From the IMG/VR virus record IMGVR_UViG_2740892236_000007: DNA of 14,507 nucleotides, one strand, 5' to 3'. Position numbers and translations under genes: made by a program. Of the stretch, positions 3,625 to 14,507 are shown piece after piece. Under the pieces are notes generated by a model. That model ran no database searches. It saw only the letters and a list, made by a program, of their open reading frames with translations, and had not been told where the DNA came from. The stretch's first letter is position 1, and every line of letters starts with the position of its first letter. Origin of the DNA: a virus. Lineage: Duplodnaviria > Heunggongvirae > Uroviricota > Caudoviricetes.

Positions 3625-3791
3625 GATTGCGTCGGTTTGAAGAACAGACGATATACGAAGTAGTTTACTAAAGCAGTTCTCATTTCAGGTGTTATTCACT
3701 TATTCCTTCTTTGAGTCTCTCCAATTAAGTACGAAGTCGTTTCTGTTATGCAAACCATTTATGCCGAAAGGCTCAAGTTAAGGAATGTAGA

Positions 3792-4007
3792 ATGTCAAAT
3801 AAAATGACTGGTTTAGTAAAATGGTTTAACGCTGATAAAGGTTTCGGCTTTATTTCTCCTGTTGATGGTAGTAAAGATGTGTTTGTGCATTTTTCTGCGA
3901 TTCAGAATGATAATTATCGAACCTTATTTGAAGGTCAAAAGGTTACCTTCTCTATAGAGAGTGGTGCTAAAGGTCCTGCAGCAGCAAATGTCATCATTAC
4001 TGATTAA
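3792..4007 (+). CDS. cspB: Cold-shock protein CspB, 71 aa
   Basis: Translation [71 protein letters not shown] with RNP motifs. Confidence 0.95.
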
Positions 4008-4288
4008 AATTCATCGCTCGTCTGTATACGATAACGAAGAAGGCTGATGCCTGAGTAGAGATACGGACAGAGTAGTGAATATTGGATCTCTTTAATAAAA
4101 AGTAAGGAGGTCCAATACATGAAACAATGGCTAGCATATTTGGCAAAATCTTAATCAGGAAAAGTATGCTAACCATTGTGGTGAAGTGCAGGTTTGCTGC
4201 ATGAATAGTTTTACAGCAGAAGCTAACTGCTGGCATGGCAAAACAAAGTGCGTAAGTGGATGACTCCCACAAAAAGCACCACAATCTC

Positions 4289-6527: not shown

Positions 6528-6678
6528 GGTGTTCTGGTTTGTTACAAATTTATCTGAAGCAGTCATTGTTATAATTTTATTATTTGTACCTCTTGAGATT
6601 TCCTTGTTGGTTTTTCTCTCTGATATTTTTTTTCGGACCATTCTGCCCAAGGGCTAATTTCTTCAAAAGGTAATAATT

Positions 6679-6891
6679 ATGTCTAACAAAATGACTGGTT
6701 TAGTGAAATGGTTTAACCCTGAAAAAGGTTTTGGTTTCATCACGCCGAAAGATGGCAGCAAAGATGTGTTTGTCCATTTCTCAGCAATTCAGAGCAACGA
6801 TTTCAAAACATTAACTGAGAATCAGGAAGTTGAATTTGGTATTGAGAACGGACCTAAAGGTCCTGCCGCTGTTCATGTAGTGGCGCTTTGA
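6679..6891 (+). CDS. cspI: Cold-shock protein CspI, 70 aa
   Basis: Translation [70 protein letters not shown]. Confidence 0.95.
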
Positions 6892-7095
6892 GGTAGACAA
6901 TATTACAAACCATATTCACTTTAGATGCCCGTGTTGTCATGGTTCCCAGTATAGAACATCATCTTTTGATGTTTCTGACATGAATCCTTTCGGGGCAAAA
7001 TGTATCTTTTGTAAATCAATGATGATTACATTTGATAATATTTCACAATACTTAAATGCCAGCCGTCTGTCGTTGGATTTAAAAAAGTGAAAATG

Positions 7096-10603: not shown

Positions 10604-10906
10604 ACAGCCGGTGCACATACCCATTCGATGACATTTGTTTCAGGTGGTTCCAGTGGTGCTCCGGGAAGTGGATCACCTGATTATTCTAAATACAGTGTTA
10701 ACACTTCTTCTGCAGGCGCTCATACGCACTCTGTATCGGGTACTGCTGCAAGCGCAGGTGCACACGCATATACTGTCGGTATTGGTGCTCATACGCACTC
10801 CGTTGCGATTGGTTCACATGGACATACCATCACCGTTAACGCTGCTGGTAACGCGGAAAACACCGTCAAAAACATCGCATTTAACTATATTGTGAGGCTT
10901 GCATAA
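10604..10906 (+). pseudogene. Side tail fiber (Stf) C-terminal fragment fused to the J fragment
   Basis: GAHTHS repeats and ...[19 protein letters not shown]-terminus; stop overlaps tfa start (TAATG). Confidence 0.75.
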
Positions 10907-11486
10907 TGGCATTCAGAATGAGTGAACAACCACGGACCATAAAAATTTATAATCTGCTGGCCGGAACTAATGAATTTATTGGTGAAGGTGATGCATATAT
11001 TCCGCCTCATACAGGTCTGCCAGCAAACAGTACCGATATTGCACCGCCAGATATTCCGGCTGGCTTCGTGGCTGTTTTCAACAGTGATGAGTCATCGTGG
11101 CATCTTGTTGAAGACCATCGGGGTAAACAGTTTATGACGTGGCATCAGGGGACGCGTTATTTATTTCTGAACTCGGCTCATTACCGGAAAATGTTACCTG
11201 GTTATCCCCGGAAGGGGAGTTTCAGAAGTGGAACGGCACAGCCTGGGTGAAGGATACGGAAGCAGAAAAACTGTTCCGGATCCGGGAGGTGGAAGAAACA
11301 AAAAACAGCCTGATGCAGGTAGCCAGTGAGCATATAGCGCCGCTTCAGGATGCTGTGGATCTGGAAATCGCAACGGAGGAAGAAACCTTGTTGCTGGAAG
11401 CCTGGAAAAAGTATCGGGTATTGCTGAACCGTGTTGATACGTCAACTGCACAGGATATTGAATGGCCAGTAGCACCTATAGGGTAA
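10906..11486 (+). pseudogene. Tail fiber assembly protein Tfa, disrupted by a 1-nt frameshift near 11128
   Basis: N-terminal part in one frame (10906..11250), C-terminal part [17 protein letters not shown]... in another frame (to 11486). Confidence 0.75.
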
Positions 11487-11570
11487 ATTCGTAATGATTA
11501 CCTAAATACGTTATTCTTTTGTTCAAAAAGTGATTTTGCTATAGATAGGGAGTATGTTCTTGGATTAAGA

Positions 11571-11601
11571 ATAAAAATCGCCATGAAAGAGCTTCATGGC
11601 G
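11571..11601 (-). terminator. Intrinsic-terminator-like hairpin oriented for minus-strand transcripts
   Basis: Perfect 9-bp stem CGCCATGAA / TTCATGGCG with 5-nt loop; on the minus strand it is followed by ATTTTTAT. Confidence 0.4.
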
Positions 11602-12344
11602 AGTACATAAACGTACAAAATGTGATGAAAGTAGAGTGGCGTAAGCCACTATATTAAGATGTGACAATAGCGAAGAAAAGTAAATAACATTTTATGGACG
11701 TTTAATTGTTAATTATAAAAACTAGAGTGCCCGATATTGTTTACCTTGCTTTAAAATAATGTACTCAAACCAAATTTTTGAGCTAAAAGCTCAAATAATA
11801 TAAATGCAATAATAATGTTTAATAAGACAATTAGCTTGCTTTGTATTTTCATTTCGGAATACTGTTAAGTAACTTTGATGACCCTAACAATAGATCGGAA
11901 TTTTCTTAGAGTCAATGGTCACTGTTTTTGCTTGCAAAGCAAATGTTTTGGTGGTTATAAGTTGTCTTAATATAGTCACGCATGCAACTTGTTCCATGCG
12001 GAGATTAAAGATTGGAATATAACGCTAAGATGGAATTAAATTACATTTGCAATAATCAATTTATTATTACTCAATAATTACCGATATTATTATTGTAAAT
12101 TAATCATTAGAGTGCAAAAAGAAATGTAACGGCAAAATAAGAGGACGATAGCTGAGAAAAAAGCGTGCTTTCCCAATCTGGGGCAAATCACGTCTGAATG
12201 ACACCTGAAAACAGGTGGTAGCCTCAAGAAGGCTTGGAATATTCTTCTTTAATGTTATGTAATTCATTGATTTTTCGTGTACGATTTAAAGACATTTATT
12301 CCAAGAAAAATTTTTAACTCTTTGATTTTTCGACTCTGTATCAT

Positions 12345-12406
12345 CGGTCTCGAAAACCGGAGTAGGGGCAACTCTACCGGGGGTTCAAATCCCCCTCTCT
12401 CCGCCA
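12345..12406 (+). tRNA. serU: 3' fragment (~62 nt) of tRNA-Ser(CGA): anticodon arm, long variable arm, T-arm, acceptor 3' strand, CCA; not a complete tRNA
   Basis: CGGTCTCGAAAACCGGAGTAGGGGCAACTCTACCGGGGGTTCAAATCCCCCTCTCTCCGCCA matches the recalled 3' portion of E. coli serU; no 5' half is present upstream. Confidence 0.8.
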
Positions 12407-12990
12407 CTTTATCAATGACTTATCTCCCGACTTCCCGCCTTGCTTTTCCTAAACAGAACAATCGTAGAATATTCTTGAAGGGTTAGATCGTCACTGTTTT
12501 CTGTTCGATACTGTGACATTCAGCACTTGATTCGCTATGGATCTGACAGGAAGGTTTTGAGCGAAAATTTGCAGTTATTCAGTCGTTTTCTTATCGGTCA
12601 CCATTATTCTTTTAGACATTGATCCTACAAAGCTGCCGCAAAGTTGGTGGTGGGAACTGAAGTTGCGTAGAGAAGGGGTCAATACCCGGAGGCAAACATG
12701 GGCTGGCAAAAGTGTAGCGGTATTAGGCGCAGCTATTTAGCCTAGTTATGTTTTATGAAAACTTGATATCATATAAGTGTCTTACTTATTGGCTGTAAAT
12801 AAGTTTTTCCTAAGGAATTGTTTCTTGAGTATCATTTGTAACTGTAACGGAATTTATAATCCTTTGCTTTATTGTTACGGTATTTTTTATCACACCCTAT
12901 TTTTTATATGGTTTTTTATACTGAAGTTTGGCAAAGTGAACTTTATATGCATATACTTCATCCTGGTTTCAGTTAAGTTGGGTGGATGAT

Positions 12991-13734
12991 ATGGCAACTA
13001 CATGTTCAGTTATATTGATTTTGGAGTCCTTTGATGTTTATTTCGGAAAAGAGAGTGTGTTTCTGGAGAGAGGTTCATCTGTACTTGTCGACTCTAGCTC
13101 TAGAGATTTTTTCCTGACATATCCTGAAAGAGTGATAGTGGCGGATTTTGGCGCTGAGTTTATTAGTCGCTATTTGAAAGCTAATAACTTAAGGGATATT
13201 TCTGATTGTAGGGAATATCCATCTTATTTAAAAATAAACTTTGCTGACTTCAGTTTAATTAAAGGATTAATTAGTTGGGCTAATCACTGTGCTGAATACA
13301 TAGAAATTTTTGATGAGTCTATTGCTTTTACATGTCTCTCTGCATTTTCTTCTGAAAAACAATTTGGAGTATTTCTGTTTGAATGTTTGAAAAGCACAGG
13401 GGCTAAAGTTAAAACGATTATTCATACGGATTTATCTGCACCATGGCGTCTTAAGGATATATCATCAAGATTATATCTCAGCGAAAGTTTACTAAAGAGG
13501 AAATTGAAAGAAGAGGGGGTATCATTCAGTAAGATCATACTTGATGAGAGGATGCAAATGGCTGAATATTTACTCAGCACTCGTTGTTATCCTATTAGTA
13601 AAGTAGCTAAGGTCTGTGGTTATGCCAGTGTCTCATACTTTACTTATGTATTTAGACGTTATTTTGGTGTTTCTCCAAGTCAATACTCTCAGAGCAGTTC
13701 AGAAAGTAAAATTCTTACTCACCAGGGAATCTGA
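12991..13734 (+). CDS. AraC/XylS-family transcriptional regulator, AppY/YdeO/GadX-like, 247 aa
   Basis: C-terminal double HTH (WRLKDISSRLYLSESLLKRKLKEEG...CGYASVSYFTYVFRRYFGVSPSQY); N-terminus resembles AppY/YdeO; AT-rich gene; track ORF begins at GTG 12982. Confidence 0.85.
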   Translation: MATTCSVILILESFDVYFGKESVFLERGSSVLVDSSSRDFFLTYPERVIVADFGAEFISRYLKANNLRDISDCREYPSYLKINFADFSLIKGLISWANHCAEYIEIFDESIAFTCLSAFSSEKQFGVFLFECLKSTGAKVKTIIHTDLSAPWRLKDISSRLYLSESLLKRKLKEEGVSFSKIILDERMQMAEYLLSTRCYPISKVAKVCGYASVSYFTYVFRRYFGVSPSQYSQSSSESKILTHQGI

Positions 13735-13740
13735 TCATTG

Positions 13741-14243
13741 TTCTTGCCCCCTTATTTCCAGACAGGGGGTGTATCTTAAGTTAACGTTACCCGCTGACGT
13801 CGATATTCTCGCGGAGAGCGATAACCCAACGCACTGTGCGGATGGTTTTCATTGTAATGTTCGATCGCCACTGCAAGATTATGCAATGCCGTTCTTACAT
13901 TCGGTTTCGGCATGAACGCGATGTAGTCTTCCTTCATCGTTTTCACGAACCTTTCTGCCATTCCATTACTCTGAGGACTGCTGATTGCCGTTGTGCAGGG
14001 CTCCAGATTCAACTCTCTGGCGAACTGCCATGTTTCATGCGCTCTATACGCTGAACCGTTATCTGTCAGCCACTGGATGGACTGTTCCGGTACTTTATCG
14101 CCAAAGCGTTTTTCTATCGCTCCTAACATGACATCCTGCACTGTCGCTTTATCGTAACCTCCCGTGCTTGCGGCCCAGTCTATGGCTTCACGATCGCAAC
14201 AGTCCAGGGCGAACGTAACACGCAGTTTTGAATCGCCACGGGT
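13741..14243 (-). mobile_element. IS3-family (IS2-group-like) remnant: terminal inverted repeat plus transposase OrfB C-terminal half (~155 codons)
   Basis: Minus-strand frame 13776..14243 (...[24 protein letters not shown]...[13 protein letters not shown]...[14 protein letters not shown]) resembles the recalled IS2 InsD C-terminal half; 13741-13765 resembles the recalled IS2 terminal repeat; N-terminal half absent. Confidence 0.75.
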
Positions 14244-14291
14244 TTAACAGACACCTCAGAGTCATTTAAGATGGCTTAAAGAGAGGTGCCC

Positions 14292-14507
14292 ATGAGCGGT
14301 AAGCGTTATCCCGAAGAGTTTAAAACTGAAGCAGTCAAACAGGTTGTTGATCGCGGTTATTCTGTTGCCAGCGTTGCAACACGTCTCGATATCACCACCC
14401 ACAGCCTTTATGCCTGGATAAAGAAGTACGGTCCGGATTACTCCACTTTTTCATCAAGCCAATCCGCCCACCACTGCATCATTTCTCTGCGCTTATCGAG
14501 ATACTGA
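14292..14507 (+). mobile_element. IS3-family OrfA-like N-terminal fragment (HTH), second IS in opposite orientation
   Basis: MSGKRYPEEFKTEAVKQVVDRGYSVASVATRLDITTHSLYAWIKKYGPD fits the IS3-family OrfA N-terminal pattern; downstream part diverges and the window ends at 14507. Confidence 0.6.

Follow-up and report, generated by a model that had tools for sequence, protein, structure and literature searches.

Identity of the regulator

The window analysed here (a stretch of 14,507 nucleotides of viral DNA, IMG/VR record IMGVR_UViG_2740892236_000007) carries near its right end a gene for an AraC-type regulator lying between the remains of a tRNA gene and those of an insertion sequence. The question that this locus raises is which regulator it encodes, how it came to lie there, and what it would do for a host. 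A first-pass annotation, made from the sequence alone, had described a 247-aa protein of the AppY/YdeO kind, carried as isolated cargo in an AT-rich island and with targets unknown; its range, 12410-13740, corresponds to the gene plus ~580 nt upstream. The features of the region are collected in Table 1.

Table 1. Features of the right end of the window
Feature	Coordinates	Strand	Remarks
tfa, tail-fibre assembly, last structural gene of the prophage arm	10906..11486	+	frameshifted
AT-rich b-region spacer, 30.9% GC	11487..12344	.	contains a 55-aa ORF, 12100-12267 (-)
tRNA-Ser serU 3′ fragment, 62/90 nt from the anticodon stem onward	12345..12406	+	K-12 serU match; attR-type scar
captured host flank, natively after serU toward yodB, 278 nt	12407..12684	+	97.4% to K-12
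joint, 62 nt, 53% GC	12685..12746	.	without match outside patE modules among the fetched loci
patE upstream region	12747..12990	+	blastn 82-85% to Q-holin intergenic DNA of the P0007/P0008 prophages
patE CDS	12991..13734	+	ATG 12991, TGA 13732-13734, 247 aa; N-terminal regulatory domain ~1-135; AraC double-HTH DNA-binding domain ~140-235
truncated ISEc48 (IS3 family, IS2-like): terminal inverted repeat and 3′ transposase (integrase-core)	13739..14212	-	Sakai repeat_region
second IS fragment, start of IS3-family transposase orfA, ATG 14292	14213..14507	+	RefSeq 'transposase, incomplete' at the matching RM10410 position

The exact protein is recorded on at least 1000 contigs, so that the gene is real and no chance ORF, and its database label is just 'AraC family transcriptional regulator'. 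An in-frame GTG at 12982 is an alternative start that would give 250 aa. As had been noted by eye, the gene is AT-rich, with 35.1% GC compared with 28.7% in the 244-nt upstream region and 44.1% in the whole window. The hallmark of the AraC/XylS family is a C-terminal domain of ~100 aa with two helix-turn-helix motifs. The double HTH read from the letters was confirmed here by the Pfam models HTH_AraC, at 60.7 bits over two stretches against a cut-off of 26.6, and HTH_18, at 57.9 bits against 33.6, both at residues 158-234, and the modelled DNA-binding domain superposes on that of GadX (3mkl) with a target-normalised TM of 0.88 and an rmsd of 1.8 Å at 43% identity, which places the protein in the AraC/XylS family. 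The structure model as a whole is moderate (pLDDT 68.6; residues 71-79 and 101-118 below 50). The first recognition helix, SESLLKRKL, is about the same in YdeO, GadW, GadX and AppY (common pattern SESL(L/I)K(K/R)(K/R)L), and its K169 is the equivalent of AppY K170, a residue whose replacement (K170E) abolishes DNA binding in AppY (PMC10057817).

The protein is identical in 245 of 247 residues to the product of Sakai ECs_0287, the differences being G131E and R235S. ECs_0287, 744 nt long, lies at the right end of the thrW-integrated prophage Sp1. In EDL933 the thrW prophage CP-933H (O-island 8) has the same coordinates as Sp1, and its only AraC-family gene encodes the very protein found in Sakai. 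Z0321 is listed as 'putative regulator (prophage CP-933H)' of OI-8 (PMC2907692), and PatE is encoded by z0321 on OI-8 according to a review (PMC10877973). Since the window protein matches the product of the sole AraC gene of CP-933H, and PatE is z0321, the window gene can very safely be taken as patE. At the DNA level the window and Sakai are ~99% identical over a 1.87-kb module (12344-14212) that includes the serU fragment and the ISEc48 end, and beyond this module their flanks are unrelated. The gene is thus an already characterised regulator in a known kind of location, and the observation made at first pass is correct but ordinary.

The targets, then, are not unknown, because PatE has published target and acid-survival data. 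Functional statements on PatE come from one review and from citing papers, all of them for the O157 allele. In the review (PMC10877973), a patE-null mutant is reported to show lowered expression of gadB, gadC, gadE and hdeAB, the site of PatE activation in the hdeA promoter is placed at -132..-45, PatE down-regulates genes of LEE (the type III secretion island), and survival at low pH is raised by PatE, all for the O157 allele. A role of PatE is also mentioned in the citing papers PMC10057817 and PMC8147483, and AppY, PsrB and PatE are treated together as prophage regulators feeding into the glutamate-dependent acid-resistance (AR2) system (PMC10057817). Hence, the link to acid resistance predicted from the sequence was right, judging by the literature on the 99% identical O157 allele.

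PatE belongs to a separate clade of prophage-borne regulators

The best NCBIfam model for PatE is YdeO (NF007407; residues 1-234, E 2e-43), at 148.8 bits against an equivalog cut-off of 348, followed by GadX (NF007432), which covers the C-terminal half only, at 109.2 bits against an equivalog cut-off of 500. The identity of PatE to the K-12 proteins is 33% for YdeO, 33% for GadW, 27% for AppY (29% by BLASTP), 26% for EnvY and 24% for GadX. In a neighbour-joining tree (100 bootstraps, rooted on YbcM), the PatE-like proteins and their 46-55% identical relatives formed one clade in 100/100 replicates. This clade joins AppY+GadW at 57/100, YdeO is then added at 81/100, and GadX+EnvY fall outside. 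AppY pairs with GadW at 98/100, and AppY with the PatE clade alone was recovered in 0/100 replicates, so that PatE is not an orthologue of AppY. The phylogeny proposed at first pass therefore supports the AppY/YdeO-like description at the level of the group (YdeO/GadW/AppY, 81/100, excluding the GadX that had been named with them), but not at the level of orthologues, where identities of 27-33% and a separate clade speak against it. On these alignments PatE is a member of a distinct prophage-borne clade of regulators and the orthologue of none of YdeO, GadW and AppY.

The closest relatives, P0007 (84%) and P0008 (79%), are located between the Q antiterminator and holin genes of prophages, and the relatives P0011-P0021 (46-55%) likewise occupy the Q-holin slot. 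As to the naming of the latter, PsrA and PsrB of O157 are presumably Z1789 or Z2104, and a DNA search with the 52% relatives gave no O157 record among the matches listed. The Psr group (PsrA/PsrB) of Tree et al. 2011 is the probable identity of P0011-P0021.

Anatomy of the patE module

The tRNA scar that had been suspected upstream of the gene is real, and consists of the last 62 nt of serU. ARAGORN reported no tRNA in the window, because serU is present merely as a fragment. The DNA that follows it adjoins tRNA-Ser in nearly all E. coli genomes. A search of 12200-13900 against Rfam gave no match, and tblastn upstream of patE detected nothing left of a Q gene. A stretch of the upstream region, TTTGGCAAAGTGA.CTTT..ATG.ATATACTTCATCC, is kept in all three aligned sequences (those of patE and of the P0007 and P0008 loci). 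This conserved stretch contains the only promoter-like match on the + strand found by a consensus scan (TTGGCA-18-TATACT, 12928-12957), and the region has two promoter-like matches where 5.0 were expected from shuffled sequence, i.e., fewer than by chance. Its conservation makes 12928-12957 a candidate promoter of patE.

Downstream, an inverted-repeat-like IS end, TGTTCTTGCCCCCTTATTTCCAGACAGGGGG, begins at 13739, 4 nt past the patE stop. The same stretch is annotated in Sakai as 'ISEc48 Family: IS3 partial', the IS end is 96.6% identical to the ISEc48 copy on plasmid pO111_3, and RefSeq labels the ISEc48 part 'integrase core domain-containing protein, incomplete'. Given this annotation and match, 'IS2-like', as the abutting element had been called, is a fair description. 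The identity between the window and Sakai modules stops at 14212, where the second IS fragment abuts the truncated ISEc48. This second fragment, which ev099, PhiR70_1 and RM10410 also have, is part of the module in its lambda-att version and is lacking in O157 Sp1; in ev099 and PhiR70_1 it is followed by attP.

It had also been asked whether the IS altered the native C-terminus of the regulator. The IS-free relative P0008 (79%) is also 247 residues long and stops at the same codon (...THEEI compared with ...THQGI), so that the C-terminus has been left unaltered by the IS. What the IS did replace, from 4 nt past the stop, is the native 3′ flank. IS-free relatives have a conserved hairpin with a T-run (CCAGCATTATTGCTGG TTTTTT) ahead of the holin gene (L007 8735-8840, L008 1575-1680), and this terminator-like hairpin is missing from the patE module.

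Variants of the locus were also recorded. P0001, P0002, P0004 and P0006 are frameshift or read-through forms of patE of 306-308 aa that run into the ISEc48 remnant, and P0006 is present on 16 contigs, the longest of 1.34 Mb. In strain Z1323CEC0003 (L014, 8288-9207) a copy of IS1A lies directly upstream of patE, and the DNA from the porin gene to patE is gone, including the lysis genes, the tail genes and the serU fragment, with patE itself spared. This locus shows further IS-driven erosion that has spared patE.

Phage context and distribution

Strain RM10410 carries a defective prophage at the lambda attB site, between ybhC and ybhB, with a lambda-type int-xis at its left end. The segment 10715-14507 of the window matches the right end of this prophage at 99.6% identity, and the b region in phage record ev099 at 98.5%. 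The segment 11344-14507 is 98.9% identical to phage PhiR70_1. The phage records run in the order stf, tfa, spacer, serU fragment, patE, IS remnants, attP (core GCTTTTTTATACTAA) and int, which makes patE an accessory gene ('moron') in the b region of lambda-att lambdoid phages. The module adjoins attP in the b region of ev099, PhiR70_1 and mEp332, and in ev099 the gene is ~1 kb from attP. Thus, patE was indeed acquired horizontally, as had been proposed, but the 'isolated cargo' of an island is in fact a phage moron. The records of PhiR70_1 and mEp332 give laboratory strains as hosts, E. coli C and K-12 MG1655, and this metadata suggests that the two are propagated phages.

The tfa gene of the window is 99.6% identical to tfa of RM10410 and 98.5% to tfa of ev099. 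A 1-nt deletion near 11124, seen in the window alone, splits it into the ORFs 10906-11250 and 11139-11486, and this could be a real frameshift or a sequencing error. The 3′ half of tfa contains a full-length match to Rfam IS009 (11248-11446; 218 bits, gathering score 117). The 55-aa ORF of the spacer is annotated as hypothetical in ev099.

Among 5426 complete E. coli genomes, 520 contain at least 80% of the patE module. A 61-nt patE probe was found in 654 complete E. coli genomes, and the lambda-att version of the module with its right flank in 414. Overall, patE is carried by ~10-12% of complete E. coli genomes and is not EHEC-specific; its thrW/Sp1-type context also occurs outside O157, e.g., in the urine isolate CDF6.

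The window joins two prophages

The window is a recombinant of two prophages with a crossover at 10826-10902. Positions 1 to ~10825 are of the Qin type (99.7% to JNQH497; genes hokD, rem, ydfU, ydfT, cspF, cspB, rrrQ, cspI, gnsB, ydfO and stfQ′), and 10903-14507 is the right arm of a lambda-att prophage. The whole window was found at a single location in none of the 5426 complete genomes, and in JNQH497 its two parts sit 0.87 Mb apart on opposite strands, which points either to a large inversion between prophages or to an assembly chimera across the tfa repeat. A DLP12-like left part, as the annotation of RM10410 would have it, was considered and rejected, since just 10715-14507 matches RM10410 and the left part is Qin. 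Two matches to the Rfam cspA thermoregulator, at 3631-4023 and 6533-6918 (158.8 and 112.8 bits, gathering score 78), correspond to the leaders of cspB and cspI, cold-shock genes of Qin.

Origin of the module

The 195 nt to the left of the serU fragment (12150-12344) match, at 99% identity, the right end of a lambdoid prophage that strain 10035776-3 carries at its native serU. The left flank in O157 Sp1 is different and carries a LEM-3-like GIY-YIG gene, and strains MB15 and RMDEC332 likewise have this Sp1-type flank at native serU, with yodB following, as a genuine attR junction. The right ends of two unrelated prophages, one of the ev099 type and one of the Sp1 type, therefore meet the serU fragment at the same nucleotide, the start of the tRNA core. 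Since both left flanks are known from attR junctions at the native tRNA gene, the duplicated host DNA formed by the serU fragment and the 278-nt flank (12345-12684; L016 7001-7341) would have been captured at the attR side of serU-integrated phages. From the homology of the upstream region to Q-holin DNA and the position of the IS, we infer that patE moved from a Q-holin slot to the captured serU flank and was then capped by ISEc48.

A chimeric query for a complete serU beside patE found 0/5426 complete genomes. That the module is a cassette which moves between unrelated lambdoid prophages through integrase-mediated recombination at its serU att core is a tentative idea, which we think rather unlikely. 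If true, such a cassette would, via ev099-like phages, spread an activator of acid resistance among commensal E. coli far beyond EHEC.

Proposed role of the window allele and alternative readings

Taken together, the best explanation of the locus, to which we give a probability of roughly 80% as a whole, is that it is a phage-borne patE activator with an intact C-terminus that provides an acid-resistance input from its own promoter. In the proposed mechanism the promoter-like site at 12928-12957 would drive patE of the window, whose expression would then not depend on phage late transcription. Z0321 was 6-fold RpoS-dependent in a transcriptome study (PMC2907692), and expression of ECs0287 goes up at the transition to stationary phase (PMC2241611). 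The window gene would thus be on in stationary phase and would act as a phage-borne input to gadE and hdeAB. With patE under its own promoter, the glutamate-dependent acid-resistance circuit of a lysogen would receive one more input in stationary phase, and with ev099, PhiR70_1 and mEp332 as carriers, lysogeny could convert ordinary strains to a higher stationary-phase acid resistance.

The allele itself has to be weighed here, because both nucleotide differences between it and the O157 gene are non-synonymous, and G131E puts a charge at a glycine that is nearly invariant in the clade (G131 is present in 11 of 12 aligned sequences, i.e., in every relative aligned, and the window allele alone differs). 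Together with the native 3′ flank lost to the IS, the frameshifted tfa next to the gene and the database variants of patE frameshifted into the IS (e.g., P0001 and P0006), these changes could mean that the gene no longer functions and is a remnant in decay, within a prophage that is itself defective and rearranged. We judge this improbable, because the reading frame of patE is intact, the exact protein recurs on its many contigs, and 72 complete-genome records contain an exact match to the 61-nt stretch that includes the E131 codon. At least half of six aligned alleles, a set to which the ev099 and PhiR70_1 copies belong, read E at 131 (consensus FLFECL). Furthermore, the residue is T, N, Y or similar in AppY, YdeO, GadW, EnvY and GadX, and this variability indicates that it is not essential to the fold.

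Two other readings accept a functional protein but give it a different task, and both seem to us very improbable. PatE might mainly regulate phage genes (late genes or lysogeny control), the effect on host acid resistance being a side effect of overexpression; its nearest relatives do lie within the late operon, and much of the evidence summarised in the review relies on raised expression. However, patE is set apart from Q and the late operon, in the b region where lambda has accessory genes, the patE-null mutant described in the review (PMC10877973) has lower expression of acid-resistance genes, and prophages that have undergone heavy deletion, such as Sp1/CP-933H, still have the module. The slot after tfa that appY occupies in K-12 DLP12, and the fact that the best NCBIfam model is YdeO, would instead suit a PatE that is the functional equivalent of AppY or YdeO, e.g., acting on the hya and app (cbd) operons under anaerobiosis or in the EvgA response. 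This is hardly compatible with the low identity to both proteins (27-29% and 33%), with a YdeO score below half of the equivalog cut-off, or with the separate clade in the tree and the DNA homology that ends at tfa.

The practical value of this identification lies mainly in annotation, since the generic 'AraC family' label conceals an experimentally studied PatE, and the understanding of the regulator family is unchanged by it. What is mildly new is limited to three points: about one tenth of E. coli genomes have patE, lambda-att phage records carry it, and its module has a mosaic history.

Comparison with known systems

AppY, YdeO, GadW and GadX of K-12 are, like PatE, AraC/XylS regulators of ~250 aa that feed gadE and the acid fitness island. 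AppY shares with PatE a prophage location (DLP12) and a position after tfa, and no DNA homology beyond tfa was found between the patE locus and the DLP12 appY locus. A more distant likeness is that to CsvR, whose sequence match spans PatE residues 69-232 (E 4.5e-16) and thus extends past the DNA-binding domain into the N-terminal domain. CsvR, Rns and ToxT, AraC-type virulence regulators of solved structure, also match the PatE model weakly over the full length in Foldseek (E 4.5e-10 to 1e-6), with a TM of ~0.4 and an rmsd of 13-16 Å, for a model of pLDDT 68.6.

The Q-holin regulators are closer, and resemble PatE in their length (237-247 aa), an N-terminal CS(V/I)I motif, near-identical DNA-binding helices and their residence in lambdoid prophages. 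Their genes are placed in the late operon and followed by a terminator-like hairpin, whereas patE lies outside this slot, is joined to the serU flank and is capped by an IS. The closest counterpart of all is PatE of CP-933H/Sp1, which has, like the window, the serU 3′ fragment, the serU flank, the upstream region, the gene and the ISEc48 end 4 nt past the stop. The two differ in the second IS fragment after the truncated ISEc48, which the window has and O157 Sp1 lacks, and in the host prophage, which in the window is a lambda-att (ybhC/ybhB) ev099-like arm recombined with Qin and in O157 is the prophage at thrW.
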